32,844 nt of DNA from a virus. The stretch lies in the UHGV virus genome UHGV-0314203. One strand, 5' to 3'. The position numbers and the translations under genes were made by a program. A model generated the notes under the pieces. The model worked only from the letters and a program-made list of their open reading frames with translations. It had not been told where the DNA came from and ran no database searches. Shown in pieces: positions 1,719 to 14,988 of the stretch (position 1 is its first letter; the number at the start of each line of letters is the position of its first letter).

Positions 1719-2249
1719 TTACCTTAATTTATCAAGCTCTCGTTTATTTCTTTTATCATGTATATCATTAAGAAATAATATATTACTAGCAATGATACTA
1801 AATAACGCTATTATTTGTAGATATACTAATAACGCTGTGATAAAAAATCCAAACTTGCAGAACATGTGCTTATGCAAGGAAATGAAATCCAGATTTGAAA
1901 ATATAGGTTTCGTTAAATTTATTATAACAATAGAAAATATTACAATAGCTGAAATTATAATGGTTTTCACTATCAGCGTAATTCGCTCAATATCTTTTTC
2001 TGTTTCCTTATGATAGTTTATACTAGTTATTGTTGATGGCTTTACAATTGAACTTACAGCTGCAGGGTAAATATATGCAAGCCAAATACCTGCAATAGTG
2101 AAGATCATTGCAGAAATGTTTTGCAAGGTAGATAAAATATCTTTTATATCTGCATACGTATATTTGTCTCCGAACAAATAAGCAATAGCTATAATTGTTA
2201 GGAGAAAACATATGTGCAAAATTTTAGGTTTTATAATCATACTATGCAC
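1719..2249 (-). CDS. small integral membrane protein, about 4 predicted TM helices (cassette A, gene 2)
   Basis: 176 aa with four long hydrophobic segments (e.g. ILHICFLLTIIAIAYLF, FGFFITALLVYLQIIALFSIIASNILFL); very AT-rich; overlaps the upstream gene by 8 nt. Confidence 0.7.
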   Translation of the reverse strand: MHSMIIKPKILHICFLLTIIAIAYLFGDKYTYADIKDILSTLQNISAMIFTIAGIWLAYIYPAAVSSIVKPSTITSINYHKETEKDIERITLIVKTIIISAIVIFSIVIINLTKPIFSNLDFISLHKHMFCKFGFFITALLVYLQIIALFSIIASNILFLNDIHDKRNKRELDKLR

Positions 2250-3444
2250 CTATTTTATGAATCTGCACTGCTGTATCATTATCAGCTTCTGGTTGTTCTA
2301 TTATATCTTCATTTTTAAAACAATTCACCAAATCATTTCTATGAGCTTTTACTACACTCATTAAATATGAAGAAGAGTAATGTTTGTTTCTGTTAGAAAG
2401 GTCAACGTGAATTTCATGGCGATAAACATATTCATCTAACCAAGTAGTTGAACCATTTTTCCCATTTATTTTGAATCCGATGCGTGCGTGATCATTCCCT
2501 ACATTCTCATTGTTATTTTCTGTACCTTCTGAAATAGGATTATGGTTTTCTATATATTCATCGATGAGTTTAGTGAACTCTTCAGGCGTAGGCGTTCCTT
2601 CGACTAATAATTCAACGCGATGTTTTTTTGATAAAATAGGAGAGCTTCTTGAGAAAACATCTCCAACTGCATCAAATAACTTCTGCCATTTTTCCCGTGT
2701 ATCAGGTATGTTTGTTTCTATTACGTCATGGTAAACAATGTGAGTGATTTTTTTACACAGTTCTTCTATGTTTGCTCCACTCGTGATCATCCTTGTTTGT
2801 TTAGTCTGTACTTTAAAAACTAAACTTTCATCATCACCTTGAGAAAAAAGAACACGTTTGTAATGAACGTCTTCAGGTGAGTCATTACGAGGGCGAGTCA
2901 TATCTATGACTTTTTTATTAGGATGCTCCATCCTAAAGTCAACGTATGCTTTAATATAATGACAGAAAAGATCTGTATCCGTATTAGAACTTGGGAATCG
3001 TATGGATGCAATTTTGTTATACTCTGGAATTACCCAATAGTAGCAAGGTACGCCCCAGATATATTTACCGCCACCTTGAGTATCAGAGGCGGATACAACA
3101 TTATCTGAAGTGCCGTCAATCTTACTTTCAGCATCTATACCTTGAATATTTCCAGAGTTATCACCAAGCGTTTTCCAGATAACAAATAGATAATCTCCTG
3201 TCGTACTGTCATATGAAATATTTTTACAGTATGCTTTTGTTCTTCTATTATTATCCTTTCCCCATGGAACAGATTGTTCAACTGTTCTTGAACAGATCCA
3301 GCTATATAAGTTACACAGAACATGGGATAAGTTCTTTTCGACTAATTCCGGCGATTTGCCTTGTCGTATTTTATAAAGGCCAAACATTTCTAAATCAAAA
3401 AATGTTATAATGCCGCGTTCAGTTTTAAAGTTGGTTTTACTCAT
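2242..3444 (-). CDS. hypothetical 400-aa protein, no recognisable catalytic motif (cassette A, gene 1)
   Basis: Long ORF in AT-rich DNA, same strand as cI and int, 80 bp downstream of the cI stop; Asn/Asp/Lys-rich composition unlike the phage backbone. Confidence 0.7.
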   Translation of the reverse strand: MSKTNFKTERGIITFFDLEMFGLYKIRQGKSPELVEKNLSHVLCNLYSWICSRTVEQSVPWGKDNNRRTKAYCKNISYDSTTGDYLFVIWKTLGDNSGNIQGIDAESKIDGTSDNVVSASDTQGGGKYIWGVPCYYWVIPEYNKIASIRFPSSNTDTDLFCHYIKAYVDFRMEHPNKKVIDMTRPRNDSPEDVHYKRVLFSQGDDESLVFKVQTKQTRMITSGANIEELCKKITHIVYHDVIETNIPDTREKWQKLFDAVGDVFSRSSPILSKKHRVELLVEGTPTPEEFTKLIDEYIENHNPISEGTENNNENVGNDHARIGFKINGKNGSTTWLDEYVYRHEIHVDLSNRNKHYSSSYLMSVVKAHRNDLVNCFKNEDIIEQPEADNDTAVQIHKIGA

Positions 3445-3524: not shown

Positions 3525-4406
3525 TTAATTCGAAATGATTGTGCTTCTTATGCATGCAACTACCTCGATATCAGAAAATGCACATTCAAAGTAAGTTTCT
3601 TTACTTCTGATATTTATCATACCTTTAGGTAGCCTAGTAATTTGTCTGACGGAATAGGTTCCATCAATATTAATTAACCAGTATCCATCTAATACATCAG
3701 AAAATTTCTGATCACAGATGTATGCCACTAAACCATCCTGAACGACAATTGGTGCTGAAAGATTAGCGGGTAAAAATGACGAATCGAAAATATATGAGCC
3801 ACTCTCAACCATTTTACCTGCATTGAGATGAAATTTAGGCAGTTCTTTTACCGATGTTGTGAGAGCATTGTGCTCGCTGCCTTGTCCAGTGGCTAGCCAT
3901 AAAAGAGAATTTCCTGTTTCCAACGAACATTTTATGATCCAATCAGCCGGGAATGTGTCTCGCAAATATCTATTTGCCATAGTGCTTTTAGATACATTCA
4001 GATGGTCGGCAAGTTCCTGTCTTGTTTTAAAGCCATACGCTTTCATTAGCCTGTCTATTGCATCACGTCCGCCTGAGTCCAAATTCAGATCGTTCCCAAT
4101 TGGGGACTTCAGGGTGGTGGCTTGGGAAGCGTGCTGAACCTTTGATGCAGTTGCCTTTGACATAACCGGAGCCTCAGTACTCTGAGGGAATGGTACGCCT
4201 TTTCCGAATGAGAGCCACTCGATAGATGCACCCGTTTCAATTGCACACTGAATTACCCAGTCAGCAGGAAATACGTCACGCATCCAGCGCGTGCCCATAG
4301 TGCTTGCAGATACGTTGAACTGTTCGCACAGAGCTTGCCTTGTCTTGAATCCATACGCTTCAAGCATGCGCGTTATGACTGCTTGTCCTCCGTTTTTGAA
4401 ATTCAT
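3525..4406 (-). CDS. cI: phage 186 CI-type immunity repressor with a tandemly duplicated N-terminal HTH domain
   Basis: 293 aa; two copies of an about 60-aa unit (…MLEAYGFKTRQALCEQFNVSASTMGTRWMRDVFPADWVIQCAIETGASIEWL… and …LMKAYGFKTRQELADHLNVSKSTMANRYLRDTFPADWIIKCSLETGNSLLWL…) plus a C-terminal domain; divergent from the early operon. Confidence 0.75.
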   Translation of the reverse strand: MNFKNGGQAVITRMLEAYGFKTRQALCEQFNVSASTMGTRWMRDVFPADWVIQCAIETGASIEWLSFGKGVPFPQSTEAPVMSKATASKVQHASQATTLKSPIGNDLNLDSGGRDAIDRLMKAYGFKTRQELADHLNVSKSTMANRYLRDTFPADWIIKCSLETGNSLLWLATGQGSEHNALTTSVKELPKFHLNAGKMVESGSYIFDSSFLPANLSAPIVVQDGLVAYICDQKFSDVLDGYWLINIDGTYSVRQITRLPKGMINIRSKETYFECAFSDIEVVACIRSTIISN

Positions 4407-4432
4407 TTATTACGCCTTTGAGTAATTTTTGG

Positions 4433-4461
4433 TTGACACTTCTCAAATGAAGAATTAGTGT
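4433..4461 (+). promoter_or_regulatory. sigma70-like early lytic promoter: TTGACA (4433-4438), 17-nt spacer, TAGTGT (4456-4461)
   Basis: Consensus -35 with a plausible -10, in the cI/early divergent intergenic region, oriented toward the Apl/Cox-like gene. Confidence 0.45.
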
Positions 4462-4530
4462 GTGCGAAAGTGAACTGAACAGGATTAATCACCAGTTACC
4501 ACACATCTTGTTAAACGAGGAATCTTGCAT

Positions 4531-4753
4531 CATGGCTCCACATATTTCAATCACCTTAGCTGTCCCATCTGTTTCTATTGAGAAATACAGTGAACTGACT
4601 GGGTTATCTATCGATACTATCAATGACATGCTGGCTGATGGACGCCTTATTCGCCATCGTCTCCGTAAAGATAAAAAGCGAGAAAAGGTAATGATCAATA
4701 TCGCAGCAATGACCGTTGATGCGCTCTCTGAATGCAATTTGAGTATTAACTAG
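4531..4753 (+). CDS. small Apl/Cox-like excisionase-regulator candidate
   Basis: 74 aa from ATG 4531 with GAGGA 10 nt upstream; first gene of the rightward operon, divergent from cI, as for 186 apl / P2 cox; sequence-level assignment is weak. Confidence 0.45.
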
Positions 4754-4785
4754 TTCCATTTTGGGATACATCAGGGGTGTCGACT

Positions 4786-5295
4786 ATGTTTGATTACCAA
4801 GTTTCCAAACATCCACATTTTGATGAAGCCTGTCGAGTATTCGCACTGCGCCACAACCTGGTGCAACTGGCAGAACGTGCAGGCATGAATGTGCAGATTC
4901 TGCGGAACAAGCTGAACCCAGCTCAACCTCATTTATTAACCGCACCAGAAATCTGGCTGCTTACCGATCTGACTGAAGATTCAACGCTTGTAGACGGTTT
5001 TCTGGCACAGATTCATTGTCTGCCATGTGTACCGATTAATGAGGTGGCAAAAGAGAAACTGCCACATTACGTCATGAGTGCAACCGCAGAGATCGGGCGT
5101 GTTGCTGCAGGTGCGGTATCTGGCGATGTAAAAACCAGTGCAGGTCGTCGTGATGCCATCAGCAGCATTAACTCTGTAACACGACTGATGGCGTTGGCTG
5201 CTGTTTCATTGCAGGCCCGTTTACAGGCTAACCCTGCGATGGCGAGTGCAGTTGATACCGTGACTGGCCTCGGTGCTTCATTCGGTTTGCTGTGA
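4786..5295 (+). CDS. cII: phage 186 CII-like regulatory protein
   Basis: About 169 aa from ATG 4786 ([24 protein letters not shown]…); size and N-terminus match my recollection of 186 CII; position after the apl-like gene. Confidence 0.65.
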
Positions 5296-5302
5296 GGTGC
5301 TT

Positions 5303-5599
5303 ATGCTGACGAAAGAACCATCATTTGCATCGCTGCTGGTAAAACAAAGCCCGGCAATGCACTACGGTCACGGCTGGATCACGGGTGAGGATGGAAAACG
5401 CTGGCATCCATGTCATTCACAAGATGAATTGCTGTCTGAATTGACCACGAGGAAACGGAGAAAGTCCAAATGTATGCGGCAGAAAGTGAAGTGGTTTATC
5501 AGTTTCGTTACAGAGGGGAGAGTTATTCAGTACCTGAAGATGATTTGCTCTGTTGCTATCCGTCATTGTCGGGCGATGGCAGTTACTTTTTCACGTTAA
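5303..5599 (+). CDS. hypothetical small protein; 3' extent uncertain, overlaps the next ORF in another frame
   Basis: ATG 5303 within ORF-track frame 5273-5599; the C-terminal third is low-complexity and may not be translated. Confidence 0.3.
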   Translation: MLTKEPSFASLLVKQSPAMHYGHGWITGEDGKRWHPCHSQDELLSELTTRKRRKSKCMRQKVKWFISFVTEGRVIQYLKMICSVAIRHCRAMAVTFSR

Positions 5600-5694
5600 A
5601 GGATGGGACGTTTTTACGGGGAGAGCAGGTTAAAGAGACGATACGAAAAAATGTATCTCCTCTTGAGCGTTACCGTAAGAACAAAGAACGATAG
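5470..5694 (+). CDS. hypothetical small protein (74 aa)
   Basis: ATG 5470 with GGAG about 10 nt upstream; protein-like composition (MYAAESEVVYQFRYRGESY…). Confidence 0.45.
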   Translation: MYAAESEVVYQFRYRGESYSVPEDDLLCCYPSLSGDGSYFFTLKDGTFLRGEQVKETIRKNVSPLERYRKNKER

Positions 5695-5716
5695 CTGCGT
5701 TTGGGGGATATGAAGT

Positions 5717-6125: not shown

Positions 6126-6359
6126 ATGCGTAATATTGAAACCCTCACGACTAAAACCGAACCGGATGACGCAGGGCTTAATATTTTACTGACAGAGGTT
6201 CGTCTGGAAGAACGCCGGGCAAGGGCTGAGGCAATGGCTGCCCGCCTTGATAGTCTGGCGTGTCATATCACATCCCGCCAGCTAAACCACGTCGAAGCAG
6301 CAGAACTGCTGCGTGTGACCGCTGAAGCAATCCAGAACGAAGCGCAGGAGATCCACTAA
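6126..6359 (+). CDS. hypothetical early-region protein (77 aa)
   Basis: ATG 6126 with AGGAG 8 nt upstream; stop overlaps the next start (TAATG). Confidence 0.5.
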   Translation: MRNIETLTTKTEPDDAGLNILLTEVRLEERRARAEAMAARLDSLACHITSRQLNHVEAAELLRVTAEAIQNEAQEIH

Positions 6360-6586: not shown

Positions 6587-7440
6587 GCACCATCCTGAAA
6601 TGGGCGGGAAATAAAACCGCAATTATGTCCGAACTGAAAAAACACCTTCCTGCTGGCCCGCGACTGGTTGAACCTTTCGCGGGTTCCTGTGCAGTGATGA
6701 TGGAGACGGATTACCCCAGCTATCTGGTTGCGGATATTAATCCTGATTTAATCAACCTCTATAAAAAGGTTGCCGCTGATTGTGAATCGTTTATATCTCG
6801 CGCCAGAGTTTTATTTGAGAACGCAAGCAGGGAGATGGATTATTACAACATAAGGCAGGAGTTTAATTACTCAACTGAAATTACTGATTTCATGAAAGCG
6901 GTATATTTCCTGTATCTCAATCGTCACGGTTACCGTGGTTTATGTCGCTATAACAAGAGCGGGCATTTCAACATTCCCTACGGTAATTATAAAAATCCGT
7001 ATTTCCCTGAAAAAGAAATTCGCGAATTTGCAGAAAAAGCCCAGCGAGCAACGTTTATCTGCGCCAGCTTTGATGAAACGCTGGCGATGTTGAAGGCGGG
7101 GGATGTGGTGTATTGCGATCCGCCGTATGACGGCACGTTTTCCGGTTATCACACTGACGGCTTCACTGAAGATGACCAGTATCACCTGGCATCCGTTCTT
7201 GAACATCGGTCATCAGAAGGACATCCGGTCATTGTTTCTAACAGTGACACATCCCTGATCCGTTCGCTGTATCGCAATTTTATTCACCACTACATCAAGG
7301 CAAAACGCAGCATCGGTGTGGCAGCTGGCGAGGGTAAATCAGCAACAGAAATCATTGCTGTTTCCGGGCCGCGCTGCTGGGTGGGATTTGATTATTCGCG
7401 TGGCGTGGACAGTTCTGCCGTGTACGGAGTACGTGCATGA
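6583..7440 (+). CDS. dam: DNA adenine (N6) methyltransferase, Dam-like orphan methylase
   Basis: 285 aa; N-terminal LKWAGNK…FAGSCAV (AdoMet-binding) and catalytic DPPY (YCDPPYDG) motifs. Confidence 0.85.
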
Positions 7441-9851
7441 GTCATGCCGATATGAACAACTGCTGCGGCTTTAACGAGGCTGCCGCAGCATTCTCATGGA
7501 ACAGCCCGAAAAAGGCCATTAACCCTTATCTGGACCCGGCGGAAGTTGCGCCGGTTTCTGCGCTTTCAAACCTGATCACTCTGTACGCTGCCGATAACGA
7601 GCAGGAACAACTGCGCCGCGAGGCACTGAGTGATCAGGTCTGGGAGCGTTATTTCTTTAATGAATCCCGTGATCCTGTCCAGCGCGAAATGGAGCAGGAT
7701 AAGCTAATTAGCCGGGCAAAGCTGGCGCATGAGCAGCAGCGTTTTAATCCAGACATGGTCATTCTGGCAGATGTCAACGCCCAGCCTTCCCATATCAGCA
7801 AGCCGCTGATGCAACGTATTAAATACTTCAGCAATCTGGGCAGGCCAAAGGCTTATTCCCGCTATTTGCGTGAGACGATTAAGCCATGCCTGGAACGACT
7901 GGAGCATGTACGCGACAGCCAGCTATCTGCATCTTTTCGTTTTATGGCAAGCCATGAAGGGCTGGACGGTCTGCTGATCCTGCCTGAAATGAGTCAGGAT
8001 CAGGTGAAACGCCTGTCCACCCTTGTCGCTGCGCATATGAGCATGTGTCTTGATGCCGCTTGTGGTGATTTGTACGCCTCCGATGATGTTAAGCCGGAAG
8101 AAATCCGCAAGACATGGGAAAAGGTGGCAGCAGAAACCCTGCGACTGGATGTCATACCACCTGCGTTTGAGCAACTCCGCCGGAAAAGAAACCGCCGCAA
8201 ACCTGTGCCCTATGAACTCATTCCGGGTTCGCTGGCGCGTATGTTGTGCGCCGACTGGTGGTACCGGAAATTATGGAAGATGCGTTGCGAATGGCGGGAA
8301 GAGCAGTTGCGTGCTGTCTGTCTGGTCAGCAAAAAAGCATCTCCCTATGTCAGCTATGAAGCCGTGATGCATAAACGTGAGCAGCGCCGTAAGTCGCTGG
8401 AGTTTTTCCGTTCTCATGAACTGGTGAACGAAGACGGCGACACGCTGGACATGGAGGATGTGGTAAACGCCAGCAGCAGCAACCCGGCGCATCGCCGCAA
8501 TGAGATGATGGCCTGCGTTAAAGGTCTGGAGCTTATCGCGGAAATGCGTGGTGACTGCGCCGTTTTCTACACCATCACCTGTCCGTCACGTTTCCATTCC
8601 ACGCTAAATAACGGCAGGCCAAACCTGACCTGGACCAACGCGACAGTAAGACAAAGCAGCGATTATCTGGTCGGCATGTTTGCTGCATTTCGTAAGGCTA
8701 TGCACAAAGCCGGATTGCGCTGGTATGGCGTGCGGGTGGCTGAGCCGCATCATGACGGTACAGTTCACTGGCACCTGTTGTGTTTTATGCGCAAAAAAGA
8801 TCGCCGCGCCATTACTGCTTTGTTGCGTAAGTTTGCCATTCGTGAAGACCGCGAGGAGCTGGGGAATAACACGGGACCACGCTTTAAGTCTGAGTTGATT
8901 AACCCGCGCAAAGGAACGCCGACAAGCTACATCGCGAAATATATCAGCAAGAACATTGACGGGCGTGGTCTGGCTGGCGAGATCAGCAAGGAAACGGGTA
9001 AATCTCTGCGTGATAACGCTGAATACGTGAATGCCTGGGCGTCTTTGCATCGTGTTCAGCAATTCCGCTTCTTTGGCATTCCGGGGCGCCAGGCTTACCG
9101 TGAACTGCGATTGCTGGCTGGTCAGGCGGCAAGGCAACAGGGTGACAAAAAAGCAGGTGCGCCGGTACTGGATAACCCGCGCCTTGATGCAATCCTGGCT
9201 GCTGCTGATGCTGGTTGTTTTGCCACCTACATCATGAAGCAGGGCGGCGTACTGGTTCCCCGCAAATATCACCTCATCAGAACTGCTTATGAAATTAACG
9301 AAGAGCCGACCGCCTATGGCGATCACGGCATTCGTATTTATGGCATCTGGTCACCCATTGCAGAGGGCAAGATCTGCACTCATGCCGTGAAGTGGAAAAT
9401 GGTTCGTAAGGCCGTTGACGTTCAGGAGGCGGCAGCCGACCAGGGCGCTTGCGCCCCTTGGACTCGTGGCAATAACTGTCCCCTTGCTGAAAATTTGAAC
9501 CAACAAGGGAAAGACAAATCAGCTGATGGGGATACCAGGACGGACATTACCCGCATGGATGACAAGGAGTTGCACGATTACCTGCACAGTATGAGCAAAA
9601 AAGAGCGCCGGGAACTGGCTGCAAGGTTACGCCTGGTGAAGCCGAAACGGCGTAAAGACTACAAACAGCGAATTACAGACCATCAGCGACAGCAACTCGT
9701 CTATGAACTGAAGTCCAGAGGATTTGATGGCAGCGAGAAAGAGGTCGATTTACTCCTTCGCGGCGGCAGTATTCCGTCAGGAGCAGGCCTGCGTATCTTC
9801 TATCGGAACCAGCGTTTGCAGGAAGATGATAAGTGGCGAAACCTGTATTAA
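7437..9851 (+). CDS. A: replication initiation endonuclease, P2 gene A type
   Basis: 804 aa, the largest early ORF, at the position of P2 A / 186 A; the internal minus-strand ORFs are antisense artefacts. Confidence 0.8.
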
Positions 9852-10437: not shown

Positions 10438-10572
10438 GAAACGTTGCTGGCGTCTGAACTTGCTTCTGGCGTCAGCAAGGTTGAACAACGAGCCCTTGCG
10501 AGGCGTTAGCTCTGTAGTGCATGTCTATGCCGCATGAGATCGCATGATCGTTTGAGGATCGTTTTTGCTAAG

Positions 10573-10596
10573 GCCCGCCAGAACTGGCGGGCTTTT
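10573..10596 (+). terminator. rho-independent terminator (gcccgccag / ctggcgggc stem, then TTTT)
   Basis: Perfect inverted repeat followed by a T-run, downstream of the DinI-like gene. Confidence 0.6.
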
Positions 10597-10636
10597 GCGT
10601 AGATCATGCAGGTGCATGAAAACCACTACATAAAGC

Positions 10637-10660
10637 GGGCAGGCGTGGCGGGGATACGAG
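10637..10660. other. candidate cos (cohesive-end) region, G-rich gggcaggcgtggcggggatacgag
   Basis: Contains GGCGTGGCGGGGA, which matches my recollection of the start of the 186/P2 19-nt cohesive end; lies between the replication region and portal Q as expected; unverified. Confidence 0.3.
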
Positions 10661-10687
10661 CGCGCGTATTAGGTTTTATTTGAGAAC

Positions 10688-10717
10688 TTGTTAAATATGA
10701 TGTTTCACAATTAGAAT
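10688..10717 (+). promoter_or_regulatory. sigma70-like promoter for cassette B: TTGTTA, 18-nt spacer, TAGAAT
   Basis: Read in sequence about 30 nt upstream of the first cassette gene; spacer length is at the upper limit. Confidence 0.35.
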
Positions 10718-10746
10718 TGTCCGTAAATCATTCTGTTGGAGGCATT

Positions 10747-10929
10747 ATGGAATACTTAAGCGAAATCATTAGTTTTTTGGCAGGGGCGGGTATCAGTTGG
10801 GCTATTACTTTCAATGTGTATAATTACAAAGTAAAGCAAATTTGTATGAACCAAAGTTCTCCCATTCAAAATGGAAATACAGTGACAAACGGAAGCATTG
10901 TCGGTAGAGATCAGACTAATTCTCACTAA
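10747..10929 (+). CDS. small single-TM protein (60 aa) ending in an NGSIVGxxQTN motif (cassette B, gene 1)
   Basis: ATG 10747 with GGAGG upstream; hydrophobic IISFLAGAGISWAITFNVY; the C-terminal motif recurs at the start of the next ORF. Confidence 0.5.
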   Translation: MEYLSEIISFLAGAGISWAITFNVYNYKVKQICMNQSSPIQNGNTVTNGSIVGRDQTNSH

Positions 10930-10942
10930 GGGAGTGATTGGT

Positions 10943-11509
10943 GTGTTTAGTAAACAGGAGCAATCAGGTAATAGAGTAAGAAATGGGAGTATTGTTGGAG
11001 GGAGTCAAACAAACCACATTACCAATATAGTTCGTAGTAGTAATCGAACTTTAGAGCGTTTGTACCAAAAGTTCTCTCAAGAAGATGGAACTATGGGGGG
11101 GCAGGATTTTTGTGATAAGTTAAAGCACTATTTAGCCTCGGATACCAATCCAGATATAAGAGATTTAGCTACAAAGCTAACTGATAGTGATAGAACTGAA
11201 TTAATTTACTTTGCAACTGCTCTTAAAGAGCAAGCCCTCAAGGCGATAATGAAGTGCCAATCTTCCAAAACCGCACAAGAAATATATGCGTTTATTCTTG
11301 ATAAAATTCATGCTGATTTTATGCTCAAAATTATACCTCTTATTCAGAAGGATGAGGACCGAGTAATTGTTGATGAAAAAATTTCATTGGTATTAGAAAA
11401 TATTAGTGAAATGTTGGGCGATAATTTGTTAAACTTATCCGAAAAGGATCTTTTGGGACTGTTGTATTTTTTAGGCGGAAATTGTTATATAAGGTGGGAT
11501 AAATGTTAG
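10943..11509 (+). CDS. hypothetical mostly alpha-helical protein (about 188 aa; cassette B, gene 2)
   Basis: GTG 10943 with AAGGGAG 8 nt upstream (the ORF track starts it at TTG 10898); N-terminus repeats the NGSIVGxxQTN motif; stop overlaps the next start. Confidence 0.55.
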   Translation: MFSKQEQSGNRVRNGSIVGGSQTNHITNIVRSSNRTLERLYQKFSQEDGTMGGQDFCDKLKHYLASDTNPDIRDLATKLTDSDRTELIYFATALKEQALKAIMKCQSSKTAQEIYAFILDKIHADFMLKIIPLIQKDEDRVIVDEKISLVLENISEMLGDNLLNLSEKDLLGLLYFLGGNCYIRWDKC

Positions 11510-12003
11510 TTTATCATCCAGCATATGATGCCTATCATTGTCTATTTAGAATGATGGCAATTATGGAAAATACAAATCGGCTTGAGATTGATAAGCTTAA
11601 AATATTGGATTTTTACATTTTATTTCCTGCGTTATTAAGTGAAGTGAAAATGCCGAGAGAATTTATTAAAATTAAAAAAACAGCAAAGCTACATCATAAT
11701 GAATATCATGATCCATTGAGTCCAAGGATTATTTTCAAGGAAATGCGTCAAATACAGGATGCAGCACTAAAATGTATGCTTGCGACTGGTTATATTGATT
11801 CTGATGATTTCAGCAATGGTTTTGTCTCAAGAACAAATAAACAATTACCACTGAACCTAGCCTTAGAAATGGGCGTTTTTTTAGAGCGCAAAGAACCGTT
11901 TTCATCTTTCATTACACAAAAGATGGCTAAATTTCATCTGACTGGACCTGATGGATTGAAGGCTAGAACTAAACTTATGGAGTATAGATATGACACTTAT
12001 TAA
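11503..12003 (+). CDS. hypothetical protein (166 aa; cassette B, gene 3)
   Basis: ATG 11503 with AAGGTGGG upstream; overlaps gene 2 by 7 nt and gene 4 by 14 nt (translational coupling). Confidence 0.65.
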   Translation: MLVYHPAYDAYHCLFRMMAIMENTNRLEIDKLKILDFYILFPALLSEVKMPREFIKIKKTAKLHHNEYHDPLSPRIIFKEMRQIQDAALKCMLATGYIDSDDFSNGFVSRTNKQLPLNLALEMGVFLERKEPFSSFITQKMAKFHLTGPDGLKARTKLMEYRYDTY

Positions 12004-13894
12004 GCCTACTCTTATTGTAACCAGATTAACAGTTTTTCAACACGGACATCGTGCATTTGATTGTGAATTCCACAAAGGTGTTAACATTATTCGTGGGCGA
12101 AATAGTTCTGGTAAAACTACAATAATGGATATGCTGGCATTTTCATTGGGAGCTGAAAATATCAGGTGGAAACCACAGGCTTTGAAATGCACTAGAACAA
12201 TCGTTGAAGTGCTTCTCAATAATGAGAAAGCATGCTTTAAACGAGAGATATCTATTGAGCAAATGCGACCTCTTTATATTTATTGGGGAGCGATGGATAA
12301 GGCTTTGAATGCTGGGGAACACGAATGGGAATTATACCCATTCAAGAGAACTGAGAGTAAAATTAGCTTCACCCAAGCTATTTTCAATGCATTATCAATG
12401 CCCTTGGCACAAGGTGCTGGTTCTTCTAATTTGACATTGCATCAGATTTTACGTGTCTTGTATGCAGATCAGCCGTCGTTACATAGTCCAATTTTTCGAT
12501 TTGACAGATTTGATAATGCTCTTACCCGTGAGACGGTAGGTGGATACTTATGTGGTGTTTATAATGATGAGTTGTACAATGCACAACTTTCTTTAAGAGA
12601 TGTTGAGACCGAACTAACAAAGAAAGTTACTGAATTAAAAAGTATCTTTACTGTATTAGGTAGATCTGGACAGGCTCCAGATTTACAAGGTATTGATGAG
12701 AAAATAAAGCATCTAAATAAATTGAGAGCTATTGAGAATGTAAAACTAACAAATAGAGCTATTATAACTAATGAAGAAGGGGCTGATTCTGAAAAACGAA
12801 TGGGTACTATCAGGGAGGAACTCAATGAAGCTAAAAGGAAATTATCTTCCCTAAAAGATAAAATCCAATCTTTGGATTTTGAAATTTCAGATTCTGATAT
12901 GTTTATATCAGAATTAAATGAGCGGCTAAAAAACTTAGAACAGTCTGGAGAAACGCGTGCTATATTTGATAGTATGAATTTTGATTTTTGCCCTAGTTGT
13001 CTTTCCAAAATAGATAAGGCTCATAATGATCATGTTTGTCATCTATGTAAAGTGGAACAATTAGATGATAAAGCTGAAAATCAGTTATTAAGAATGAAAA
13101 ATGAATTAACTCTTCAAATCAAAGAATCTCTTCAATTAATGGATAGAAGAAAAGAAGAGTTGGTAAGATTAAAGCGAGATGTTCCTTTAGCTGAGAGTGA
13201 ATTAAAAAGGCTTGAACAGGATTATTTCAAAGAGTCACACTATTGGTCTTCACCGCAAGAGTTAGCTGTAGGTAAAATATATAGGGAAATTGGACGGCTT
13301 GATGAAGAAATAAAAAGAGCTTATGAAGATAAGAAGCTTATTGTTGTTATTAATGAACTTCAAGAGCGTCGCGATGAACTTCAGGCGGAAAAAAATAGAC
13401 TTGATGATCTTATTGAACTTTATGAAGAAAAAGAGGAAGTTCTTAAAGATAAAATTTATGCTTCAGTGAGCTCAATAGCACAAGAGCTTTTACAAGAAGA
13501 TTTGCCTTTGCAAAAAGAGTTTATGTCTCCTGAAAGTGTGGAGTTTAGTTTTACTGATAATAGCGTTTATGTGAATGGTAGTAAGAACTTTTCTGAAAGT
13601 TCAGCTGTAGTATTAAGGCATATATTCCATTTGGCACTACTTTCAGCAAGTATAGAGAACCACTCAATGCGACTTCCAAGATTTATGATGTTAGATGGGA
13701 TCGACGATGGTGGAATGGAAAAAGAACGGAGTCACAATTTACAGGAAATAATAATTGATGAGTGCTCACGTTATGAACATGATTATCAGTTGATATTTGC
13801 AACATCTGAAATAAATCCCAAATACAGTGAGAGTGAATATATTGTTGGTGAGTATTATTCGCCAGATAATTATTCATTGAAAATAATTGAGTGA
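11990..13894 (+). CDS. SMC/Rad50/RecF-like ABC ATPase with a long coiled coil and paired CxxC motifs (cassette B, gene 4)
   Basis: 634 aa; N-terminal Walker A GRNSSGKTT in an SMC_N-like context; central Glu/Lys/Leu-rich coiled coil; CPSC-x14-CHLC at 12989-13048; C-terminal signature-like FSESS and Walker-B-like FMMLDGIDD. Confidence 0.8.
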   Translation: MTLIKPTLIVTRLTVFQHGHRAFDCEFHKGVNIIRGRNSSGKTTIMDMLAFSLGAENIRWKPQALKCTRTIVEVLLNNEKACFKREISIEQMRPLYIYWGAMDKALNAGEHEWELYPFKRTESKISFTQAIFNALSMPLAQGAGSSNLTLHQILRVLYADQPSLHSPIFRFDRFDNALTRETVGGYLCGVYNDELYNAQLSLRDVETELTKKVTELKSIFTVLGRSGQAPDLQGIDEKIKHLNKLRAIENVKLTNRAIITNEEGADSEKRMGTIREELNEAKRKLSSLKDKIQSLDFEISDSDMFISELNERLKNLEQSGETRAIFDSMNFDFCPSCLSKIDKAHNDHVCHLCKVEQLDDKAENQLLRMKNELTLQIKESLQLMDRRKEELVRLKRDVPLAESELKRLEQDYFKESHYWSSPQELAVGKIYREIGRLDEEIKRAYEDKKLIVVINELQERRDELQAEKNRLDDLIELYEEKEEVLKDKIYASVSSIAQELLQEDLPLQKEFMSPESVEFSFTDNSVYVNGSKNFSESSAVVLRHIFHLALLSASIENHSMRLPRFMMLDGIDDGGMEKERSHNLQEIIIDECSRYEHDYQLIFATSEINPKYSESEYIVGEYYSPDNYSLKIIE

Positions 13895-13910
13895 TTGTGT
13901 ATGTGGCTGC

Positions 13911-13928
13911 TATTTTTGTAGCCACATA
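13911..13928. terminator. hairpin (atgtggct…agccacat) between convergent cassette B and portal gene; possible bidirectional terminator
   Basis: 8-bp inverted repeat with an 11-nt T-rich loop in the 65-bp convergent intergenic space. Confidence 0.35.
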
Positions 13929-13959
13929 TAAATTACTGTCTGAACTTTATTGTTTTTGT

Positions 13960-14988
13960 TCAAAGTACGTATGGTCTAAATCTAATTATTTCTATTTCAA
14001 GCCAGTCGTTTAATTGATCAAATCTTTTCTGCATGGGCACCAATTCATTGCGCATAAATACCTTACTAGCCTTCTCCACATCCCCAAACCCCCCAACATT
14101 ATTCGGCAAAATTCCCATCATCTGAGGCGGTACGCGGTGTGCAGCCATCATGTCGTCCCGGCTCACGTTCTTGATGTTCAGAAATTCATCTTTCGCTGCG
14201 ACTTCTGACAACGGGATAATCTGAAGTCCGTCCTTTTTGCCGTTAGGCGAGTACATAAACAGATTGCGGAAGTTGCCTGGACCTTTGGCGCTTTTCATCG
14301 CGTTGCGGAGGTTGTTCACATCCTCCTGATTCTGCGCGGCGTCGGTCATGTACATGATGAAGCCTGCATGACTACCGTTGATGTAATACTTACGGCGGAA
14401 CAGCGTGGCGGATTCGTTGAGCAGGGCGGATGGAATGGCAGAAAGATAGCCGGGCAGGCCGTAGATCTCCTGGTTGATGTCCGGTTCCATCAGATGAAAA
14501 ATGCTGCCTTTCGTGAACTGATACGGCTGGGTTGTCATACCGTATTGCACAAACCAGTAGGTATCCAGGTCTAACCCGCGTCGGGTGTATTTTGCCAGCG
14601 CAGGCTCAAGGGCGATAACTTCACCGAATCGGTTCGTGCGTTTCTCCAGGTAGGCGTTACCAAATACCAGATAGTCCTGCACAAAACGCGAAAAAGCCTG
14701 TTGGCTGAGCAGCGGATGAGGGATATAGGTACTGGTCAGAATGTTGCACTTTACTGCAATCGGGGAACTGTGATGCACGGCAGCGCGGAAGGTGCGCGCC
14801 AGTCCGTCAAAGCTGACGGGAGGCTCATACCAGCGATCTGTCTGAACACATTCCACATAGTCCAGCAGTTCGCGGCGGTCAAGTACTGGAACGGGATCAC
14901 CGAAGCTGAATGCTTCGGCTGAAGTCTGGTTTTTATGCTGGATCTGATTCGTCGCCGCAGTGCGGTTCTTCTTACTCTTTCCCATCAA
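13960..14988 (-). CDS. Q: portal protein (P2 gpQ-like)
   Basis: 342 aa, size and position as P2 Q; stop overlaps the terminase gene start. Confidence 0.85.
   Translation of the reverse strand: MMGKSKKNRTAATNQIQHKNQTSAEAFSFGDPVPVLDRRELLDYVECVQTDRWYEPPVSFDGLARTFRAAVHHSSPIAVKCNILTSTYIPHPLLSQQAFSRFVQDYLVFGNAYLEKRTNRFGEVIALEPALAKYTRRGLDLDTYWFVQYGMTTQPYQFTKGSIFHLMEPDINQEIYGLPGYLSAIPSALLNESATLFRRKYYINGSHAGFIMYMTDAAQNQEDVNNLRNAMKSAKGPGNFRNLFMYSPNGKKDGLQIIPLSEVAAKDEFLNIKNVSRDDMMAAHRVPPQMMGILPNNVGGFGDVEKASKVFMRNELVPMQKRFDQLNDWLEIEIIRFRPYVL

Follow-up and report, generated by a model that had tools for sequence, protein, structure and literature searches.

A four-gene short Lamassu operon of a P2/186-like prophage with a small membrane protein as candidate split effector

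Introduction

Lamassu, which occurs in about 10-15% of genomes, is among the commonest bacterial defence families, and not until 2025 was the mechanism of its activation solved. Here we describe a Lamassu operon of four genes, named ORF1 to ORF4, in the virus genome UHGV-0314203 (32,844 nucleotides (nt); this whole stretch is called the window below), and we propose that its effector may have been split off from LmuA as the small membrane protein ORF1, which is coupled to LmuA by a shared peptide motif.

Three independent structural studies agree on how Lamassu is switched on: the oligomerisation domain of LmuA is sequestered by LmuB2-LmuC, the sensing of DNA ends together with ATP hydrolysis liberates the one LmuA held there, and the freed LmuA tetramerises, while forced dimerisation of the LmuA nuclease head alone is toxic (10.1101/2025.03.14.643221; PMC12663957; 10.1101/2025.06.23.660979). 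Contacts of the LmuA head are minimal in the solved complexes, and the head is active only after release (PMC12663957). Reviews list only enzymatic LmuA heads, and Haudiquet et al. 2025 described the LmuA of their short-Lamassu "Clade O", with more than 100 sequences from more than 40 species, as having "seemingly lost the effector domain" (PMC12663957).

Membrane effectors addressed through a short shared motif have been described in other systems. In Bab/Agp of E. coli, a motif common to the effector C-terminus and the sensor N-terminus triggers a membrane-targeting Abi effector (10.1101/2024.11.07.622273), and the motifs BASS1-10 have been reported only in multicellular bacteria, namely Actinobacteria and Cyanobacteria (10.1101/2020.01.06.895854).

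Results

Predicted Lamassu genes of the operon

The genes of the operon and the main domain of ORF2 are as follows.

10747-10929, + strand: ORF1, 60 amino acids (aa), ATG start with GGAGG 5 nt upstream; single-pass membrane protein, proposed split effector
10943-11509, + strand: ORF2, LmuA-like, 188 aa, GTG start with AAGGGAG upstream; head motif and CTD9, no enzymatic head
11045-11479, + strand: helical bundle of ORF2 (residues 35-179), predicted equivalent of the LmuA C-terminal docking/oligomerisation domain
11503-12003, + strand: ORF3, LmuC, i.e. Middle Component 5 (MC5) of ABC-three component (ABC-3C) systems, 166 aa
11990-13894, + strand: ORF4, LmuB, short-type SMC/Rad50-like ABC ATPase, 634 aa

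The C-terminal part of ORF2 matched the Pfam family "CTD9 of ABC-3C systems" (5.2e-30). ORF3 matched Pfam MC5 (PF20291; 2e-57, residues 2-164 on profile positions 1-167 of 167) and PADLOC LmuC (8.7e-4), and ORF4 matched PADLOC LmuB (4.5e-43, residues 5-572 on profile positions 4-566 of 643). Given these CTD9, MC5 and LmuB matches, together with the conserved ATPase motifs of ORF4, the operon was assigned to the short-type Lamassu, with ORF4, ORF3 and the C-terminal domain of ORF2 as the canonical sensor/sequestration module. The NCBI pipeline names the three genes "ABC-three component system protein / middle component 5", and searches of ORF2, ORF3 and ORF4 against PDB sequences with phmmer/hmmsearch gave no meaningful match. 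An MC5/LmuC gene was found in every related locus, conserved ATPase motifs in all 113 unique ORF4 homologues (627-653 aa), and constraint on all four genes of the system. The operon thus has three of the four structural hallmarks of Lamassu/ABC-3C, namely LmuB, the middle component and the LmuA C-terminal docking/oligomerisation domain, and lacks the fourth, an enzymatic LmuA head.

It is in ORF2 that the operon departs from the usual plan. PADLOC gave no LmuA match for ORF2, and neither Pfam nor PADLOC found an effector domain in it at E<=1. The start of ORF2 in the window is also the RefSeq start in a 99.7% identical locus, and the close homologues of ORF2 are all 171-208 aa long. A CTD9 profile search of 1.84 billion representatives returned 567 clusters at 50% identity, with a median length of 189 aa among the top 150. 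In an AlphaFold2 model of ORF2 built on a 146-sequence alignment, which replaced a 20-sequence version (predicted local distance difference test score 56), residues 1-33 were without regular structure.

ORF1, a fourth gene upstream of ORF2

The membrane segment of ORF1 lies at its N-terminus.

10756-10821, + strand: transmembrane (TM) helix of ORF1, residues ~4-25, LSEIISFLAGAGISWAITFNVY; small-residue G/A pattern, Kyte-Doolittle maximum 1.54

Among 134 ORF1 homologues, a median of 6 residues precedes the TM helix, and the mean number of K+R is 0.40 before the helix and 3.56 in the 15 residues that follow it. By the positive-inside rule, this difference points to an N-out/C-in orientation, so that the tail of ORF1 is predicted to be cytoplasmic and able to meet ORF2 there.

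The occurrence of ORF1 was followed in two sets of loci. For set 1, genome and viral collections were searched with the CTD9 protein, which gave 73 loci. Under a strict filter, which required a TM helix at the N-terminus, a basic linker and the motif described below in an ORF of 43-83 aa lying upstream on the same strand, an ORF1-like gene preceded CTD9 in 63 of the 73. Inspection of the other ten revealed seven intact genes with a co-varying tail, one frameshifted gene and one partial tail at a contig end; one set 1 locus begins at the contig start and is not assessable, and the locus L050 was the only one without ORF1. In L028 (Ottowia flava NZ_JBHUEJ010000036.1, ~4700-4940), the TM ORF is frameshifted, with the TM helix in one frame and the linker and motif in another, reflecting either a pseudogene or an assembly error. 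Set 2, independent of set 1 and collected with no motif filter, came from a metagenome scan seeded with 38 distant CTD9 proteins and contained 80 loci. A small hydrophobic ORF whose tail mirrors the head of ORF2 was present in 71/71 of the loci having at least 260 nt upstream, ending between 18 nt inside and 73 nt before the CTD9 start. Reverse look-ups from three divergent TM proteins led each time to a gene adjoining CTD9-MC5-LmuB, in non-prophage contexts.

The ORF1 family comprises 191 clusters. Among the matches listed, the proteins are 47-114 aa long, nearly all are unnamed or hypothetical, and none has a Pfam domain. ORF1 matches phrog_17975, of unknown function, and ORF2 likewise falls in a PHROGs family of unknown function. 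ORF1 with an intact TM helix and motif was found in Gamma-, Beta- and Alphaproteobacteria and in metagenome-assembled Bacteroidota and Firestonebacteria genomes. We therefore consider that ORF1 is most probably a real fourth component of the system, as its conservation suggests. In the 99.7% identical E. coli locus L001 (NZ_CP029741.1), RefSeq/PGAP annotates ORF2-ORF4 and not ORF1, whose equivalent lies at 6148-6330. Since ORF1 is unannotated, constructs or defence-finder calls made from annotated genes would miss the fourth gene.

The closeness of ORF1 and ORF2 raises the question of whether the two are joined by frameshifting or stop-codon readthrough into one TM-motif-motif-CTD9 protein, i.e. 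an LmuA with a TM head. The gap between them in the window is 13 nt, and in four loci (L005, L008, L019 and L030) they share a frame with a single stop codon in between. However, the frame relation varies among loci: the two genes are in different frames in the window and in L002, and the gaps in set 2 range from -18 to +73 nt. Furthermore, the loci showed no conserved slippery site, a separate Shine-Dalgarno sequence and start codon serve ORF2, and the 150 listed CTD9 representatives include no natural fusion. A conserved recoding fusion is disfavoured by the variable frame relation in particular, and we rejected it as very improbable.

A motif shared by ORF1 and ORF2

The C-terminal tail of ORF1 and the ~25 unstructured N-terminal residues of ORF2 carry the same G/N/D-rich motif of ~20 residues.

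10864-10920, + strand: tail motif of ORF1, IQNGNTVTNGSIVGRDQTN; Q41 and N44 invariant in the family
10958-11014, + strand: head motif of ORF2, EQSGNRVRNGSIVGGSQTN, matching that of the ORF1 tail; Q7, N10, G15 and V18 nearly invariant

The profile of the tails (n=110) equals that of the heads (n=88), both reading V.Q.(G/N)N.(V/A)GGD(I/Q/M)(A/V)G(R/G)D(I).K, with 13.8% G, 12.3% N and alternating aliphatic residues. The tail motif lies within the last 35 residues in 120/120 of the TM-family matches listed. Because an early regular expression undercounted the motif (63/73 loci; 58/150 representatives), a motif hidden Markov model with controls, inspection and the filter-free procedure were used instead; with the model, 125 of 137 short CTD9 representatives showed the head motif, exceeding every control.

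To compare the partners, local-alignment scores of each tail against the head of its own locus were set against those with other heads, using 20,000 permutations. In set 1, the similarity was 57.0 within loci and 39.8 between loci, and 0/20,000 permutations reached the observed mean. The corresponding values in set 2 were 62.9 and 49.6 (z = 12; 0/20,000), and the result held after dereplication of set 2 to 37 lineages at <60% identity (z = 9.6; 0/20,000). Given that independent drift would leave tails no closer to their own heads, tail and head have co-evolved. Clade-specific and rare variants recur in both partners, such as the enteric one-residue insertion "NGSIVG", the alphaproteobacterial "GHM.GRDVNV" (L046), "AGRDVAGRDI" in L112, "AGRDVIGGD" in L128 and "INGDN.GRD" in L140.

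At 1,357 identical aligned tail-head residues, the same codon was used in 43% of cases, compared with 38% expected from independent choice, which places the selection at the level of the peptide. The codon test thus ruled out gene conversion or recent duplication as a source of the motif match. In the window itself, only 3/13 identical residues share a codon, and the two motif copies are too diverged to serve as direct DNA repeats for recombination.

These data bear on the reading that the system is a decayed, effector-less Lamassu, in which LmuA has lost its effector, ORF1 is unrelated or spurious, and the likeness of tail and head is a remnant of duplication. The published wording of a "seemingly lost" effector domain, the missing RefSeq annotation of ORF1 and one related construct that gave no protection speak for such decay. 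Against it, ORF1 is kept with intact TM helix and motif across classes of Proteobacteria, Bacteroidota and Firestonebacteria, co-variation of motif and head goes along with scrambled synonymous sites, all four genes are constrained, and the CTD9 family is as large as stated above. Decay is thus already contradicted by the conservation and co-variation data, and we hold it to be very improbable.

A co-varying interface would also be expected if the pairing were inhibitory, as in a toxin-antitoxin pair: ORF1 would be an intrinsically toxic, holin-like peptide whose tail is capped 1:1 by the ORF2 head, and activation would withdraw ORF2 and let ORF1 oligomerise. The tight translational coupling and the adjacency of the two genes fit this scheme, and small single-TM toxins are common. 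On the other hand, the two motifs are the same and not complementary, which favours co-assembly over capping, and the known direction of Lamassu activation is a gain of oligomerisation. In addition, the solved systems hold one LmuA per LmuB2C with its head free at rest (PMC12663957), which makes a withdrawal of ORF2 on activation hard to picture. We therefore regard inhibitory pairing as unlikely.

The motif was also looked for in viral contigs. The exact back-translated GGDQAGRDI pattern had no match there, and a looser pattern gave four loci, L157-L160, against an estimated ~0.4 chance matches. L157/L158 (IMGVR_UViG_2721755344), L159 (IMGVR_UViG_3300037421_000060, motif 451-492) and L160 (IMGVR_UViG_3300010411_000004, motif 3690-3731) carry the motif in three distinct phage proteins, none beside a CTD9 gene: a multi-TM protein of 116 aa that ends in ...NIVLGDQAGRDLEKA, a phrog_3657 protein (function unknown; at least 226 aa) with the near-consensus VKQTGNVVSGDQAGRDINK in mid-chain, and a protein of 128 aa that ends in ...GNVVFGDCAGRDLIKPEVRS. 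These copies could be decoys against the head-tail pairing, or could belong to other systems with the same motif.

Alternative heads on CTD9

L050 (Azospirillum tabaci NZ_JACCJY010000042.1, 4014-5363), the locus without ORF1, encodes a CTD9 fused to a DUF676 putative serine esterase head (2.4e-6) and has neither motif nor TM partner, so that the two arrangements show a complementary distribution. Two further heads occur among the CTD9 representatives, a trypsin-like one in P0298 (397 aa) and one without assigned identity in P0242 (349 aa). One CTD9 family therefore bears either an enzyme or the motif as its head, and the presence of esterase- and protease-type heads at the motif position suggests that the motif and the TM protein replace the effector and are not a localisation signal.

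This evidence bears on a further explanation, in which ORF1 is an anchor and not a killer. A constitutive head-tail pairing would then hold LmuA-LmuC-LmuB at the inner membrane, for example near the site of phage DNA entry, and any defence would come from DNA-end binding or sequestration by LmuB/LmuC or from another host factor. The co-variation and topology data also fit a stable heterotypic tether, ORF1 has no recognisable pore-forming domain, and published work has read the clade as effector-less. In contrast, every characterised Lamassu needs a toxic effector head, whose mutation abolishes defence, the motif position is otherwise taken by esterase- or protease-type heads, and the LmuA head in the solved complexes has minimal contacts and becomes active only once released (PMC12663957). 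A mere tether thus seems improbable to us.

Conserved sites of ORF4

Three groups of sites stand out in the predicted LmuB.

12095-12118, + strand: Walker A GRNSSGKT of ORF4, from residue 36
12989-13048, + strand: two CxxC of ORF4, CPSC (334-337) and CHLC (350-353), zinc-hook-like, at the coiled-coil apex
13592-13717, + strand: C-terminal ATPase half of ORF4, with signature-like FSESS (535-539), Walker B-like FMMLDG (D569) and D573/G575

Across the 113 homologues, G41, K42 and T44 of Walker A, all four cysteines, and S535, S537, S538, D569, D573 and G575 are at least 97% conserved, and two CxxC are present in 113/113. A long coiled coil is supported by the near full-length LmuB matches and by coiled-coil-type profile matches over residues ~190-520, and is thus likely. 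The Walker B-like FMMLDG (564-569, window 13679-13696) has a Gly after the conserved Asp, where canonical ABC ATPases have Glu and short Lamassu Q/S/T/E; downstream of it D573 and G575 are invariant, and the catalytic competence of the site is putative.

A preliminary description of the window, made from its letters and open reading frames, had recognised in ORF4 an SMC/Rad50-like ABC ATPase with a Walker A and paired CxxC, which the LmuB match (4.5e-43) and the conserved motifs (>=97%) bear out. Its comparison with the Lamassu or ABC-3C architecture agrees with the Pfam and PADLOC profile searches (MC5 2e-57, CTD9 5.2e-30, LmuB 4.5e-43), and its remark that the partner is too small for a canonical LmuA and has no enzymatic domain agrees with the lack of any Pfam or PADLOC effector match. 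Its suggestion of the small TM protein as effector gains strong support from conservation, shared motif and co-variation, and ORF1 may well have this role. Where a new variant or a new family had been suggested, a variant it is, being a member of Lamassu/ABC-3C, and a new family it is not. To call the system uncharacterised was an overstatement: NCBI already names such genes ABC-three component, and a short-Lamassu clade without an LmuA effector domain is described in PMC12663957. The operon of the window is nothing unusual within a large family that is already catalogued, and what appears to be new is the fourth component and the coupling principle. The shared, co-evolving motif of ORF1 and ORF2, a point missed by the preliminary description, is the interesting part.

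The cargo block and its flanks

The operon lies in an AT-rich block, to which the following features belong or are adjacent.

10573-10596, + strand: terminator-like hairpin, GCCCGCCAG-AA-CTGGCGGGC followed by TTTT, read from sequence
10680-13950: AT-rich cargo block in the gpA-gpQ hotspot of a P2/186-like prophage, placed by the GC dip, its rarity among E. coli and PMC9122126
10688-10717, + strand: promoter-like element TTGTTA-18 nt-TAGAAT upstream of ORF1, 9/12 match, a weak candidate

The GC content is 0.32-0.39 over ~10.7-14.0 kb, compared with 0.45-0.55 upstream and 0.50-0.59 downstream, and the block is filled by the four + strand ORFs, with overlaps of 7 nt between ORF2 and ORF3 and of 14 nt between ORF3 and ORF4. 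To its left lie the gpA replication endonuclease (7437-9851) and a DinI-like ORF, and to its right the portal gene (13960-14988, - strand) and the terminase. The interval between gpA and gpQ is a documented P2 hotspot, in which P2 itself carries old and tin (PMC9122126), and the variable, non-core genes of the window lie between gpA and gpQ next to cos. Of 5,426 complete E. coli genomes, ~1,276 have the left flank, and just 4, all with this flank, contain a full-length match to the cargo; the cargo is therefore accessory and not core. The stretch 10600-10680 is still shared with the ~1,276 genomes, and the cargo starts after 10680. The DinI transcription unit upstream ends at the hairpin, immediately to the left of the variable cargo.

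These results uphold the earlier view of a foreign, AT-rich block with four co-directional, coupled ORFs between the replication/DinI region and the portal, in which GC content, ORF calls and overlaps agree, and of cargo at the P2 tin/old hotspot, and its proposed check that the block is not conserved P2-like core came out in its favour. The promoter-like element that it named is present, but such elements cannot be distinguished from background, with 15 sites in the region compared with 13.9 in shuffles.

With only 23 of 156 related loci adjoining a P2-type portal, the cassette is not P2-specific, and the P2 hotspot is one landing site of a mobile module spread across Proteobacteria and beyond. 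The near-identical prophage of E. coli AR_0085 (L001) has an extra hypothetical gene of 141 aa (5275-5700, - strand) between DinI and the Lamassu operon, which the window counterpart (~10440-10600) does not have; the hotspot is therefore mosaic even among carriers of the same cargo. A second AT-rich island of the window (1719-3444, - strand, GC 0.31-0.37) is flanked by the integrase (607-1638) on one side and by a 186-type CI repressor (3525-4406) on the other. Its products match a candidate defence pair of PADLOC, PDC-M18B (176 aa, 6e-24) and PDC-M18A (400 aa, 1.3e-35), and have no Pfam domains.

Discussion

Proposed mechanism

We propose, with a probability of about 0.58, that the four genes of the block form an abortive-infection system of the short Lamassu (ABC-3C) type, whose effector was split off from LmuA as ORF1. 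In the resting state, one ORF2 would be held by LmuB2-LmuC. Phage DNA ends or replication intermediates would be sensed, leading to the ATP-dependent release of ORF2, and the C-terminal domain of the freed ORF2 would oligomerise, as a tetramer in the solved systems. Several head motifs would thereby be brought together into a homotypic, probably beta-rich and possibly cross-beta nucleus, which would recruit or template the tails of ORF1. The clustered TM helices of ORF1 would then permeabilise or depolarise the inner membrane, and the infection would be aborted. In this scheme, we infer that head and tail bind, in which direction regulation runs, that the membrane is damaged and, most of all, that the assembly is of amyloid nature.

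Several points weigh against this proposal. Our literature search found no experiment on phage defence, killing or membrane action of this subtype. A P4 variant called "Lamassu missing a known effector", possibly related and perhaps of the same subtype, gave no protection against 28 phages (PMC13586616). That construct may have been made without the small upstream ORF, a question worth asking given the omission of ORF1 by RefSeq. The direct binding of head and tail is deduced from co-variation, and that CTD9 forms a tetramer is an extrapolation from LmuA C-terminal domains that are only distantly related (7-9% identity). The motif contains conserved charged residues (D, R, D, K), which are less typical of classical amyloid cores, and ORF1 consists of a bare TM helix, a basic linker and the motif and lacks a pore-forming domain of the Bell/HeLo type. 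Finally, a literature search whose scope excluded the founding ABC-3C paper (Krishnan et al. 2020), where an earlier mention is possible, found no publication that connects a TM partner, amyloid motifs or the motif sequence with Lamassu, LmuA or CTD9.

A more far-reaching form of the proposal is that Lamassu immunity signals by prion-like templating, in which a tetramerised, CTD-only LmuA with a one-rung beta motif nucleates a cross-beta fold that propagates to the ORF1 tails and ends in a lethal pore. We put this forward tentatively, as possible but rather doubtful. If true, amyloid signalling would reach beyond the NLR-type sensors of multicellular bacteria to SMC-type DNA sensors across Proteobacteria, the entire "effector-less" Lamassu clade would be explained, and some phages may then carry copies of the motif as decoys (L157-L160).

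Implications of a split effector

A sizeable clade has been described as effector-less, and how, or whether, such a Lamassu works is now directly testable. If the split-effector proposal is true, Lamassu gains a membrane-targeting output, and a liberation-and-oligomerisation switch can drive an effector acting in trans via a peptide motif. SMC-based immunity may then connect to amyloid-type signalling, which to our knowledge has so far been demonstrated in bacteria only for Bab/Agp. It would further explain why annotation pipelines and defence finders would call such loci incomplete, and would be a warning that constructs made from annotated genes may leave out an essential fourth gene.

Comparison with known systems

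The short (type II) Lamassu/ABC-3C systems, such as V. cholerae DdmABC, Salmonella LmuACB and E. coli Lamassu Ec-Lipase, have a nuclease, lipase, protease or Sir2 head on LmuA, whereas LmuA of the window has only the motif of ~25 residues, and the operon has a fourth gene for a small TM protein with the same motif. The Walker B-like site of ORF4 reads hhhhDG, unlike the hhhhD followed by Q, S, T or E reported for short Lamassu, and the window proteins have no sequence-level match to the chains of solved Lamassu. The operon resembles Clade O in its short LmuB, full-length LmuC and LmuA cut down to the C-terminal domain; the description fits, and the operon may belong to this clade (PMC12663957). 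That paper makes no mention of an upstream TM gene or a shared motif, and, unlike its description, the present evidence suggests that the effector was split off and not lost.

The closest parallel in coupling is Bab/Agp (BASS11; 10.1101/2024.11.07.622273). Both have adjacent genes in a prophage hotspot, a motif shared by the C-terminus of a small membrane effector and the N-terminus on the sensor side, co-evolution of the pair and a proposed abortive-infection outcome. They differ in the sensor, which is an SMC-type three-protein complex in the window and a TPR-GreA/B-PIN protein in Bab/Agp, in the effector, which is a bare single TM helix as opposed to a Bell-like helical domain, and in the motif, whose sequence differs from the BASS11 description; the window system is known from sequence alone. 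As in the fungal NWD2/HET-S and bacterial NLR/Bell pairs (FASS, BASS1-10; 10.1101/2020.01.06.895854), an oligomerised sensor would nucleate its N-terminal motif and template a membrane executioner encoded by the neighbouring gene, and the motifs are G/N/Q-rich and ~20 residues long. In contrast to these pairs, the window system has no NLR/STAND ATPase, its motif has conserved charged residues, and pairs of its type are mainly proteobacterial. By the two features that sequence can test, a terminal motif shared by adjacent genes and motifs more alike within pairs than between them, the system behaves like an amyloid-signalling pair. It falls outside that class by its sensor, which is LmuA-CTD/LmuC/LmuB and not NLR/STAND (or TPR-GreA/B-PIN), and by its effector, since ORF1 has no HeLo/Hell/Bell-type (or TIR, CHAT) domain.

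The EAD adaptor pairs of conflict systems described by the Aravind lab use a globular homotypic domain, whereas here an unstructured motif of ~20 residues is concerned. A Pfam scan of ORF1 and ORF2 at E<=1 found no member of the EAD adaptor family (EAD1-11, Death-like). In the TM effectors of CBASS, Pycsar and Thoeris, the induced oligomerisation of small TM proteins disrupts the membrane, which is the killing step. There, nucleotide second messengers act on a sensor domain, whereas for the operon of the window we propose that a peptide motif would assemble with an oligomerised adaptor.

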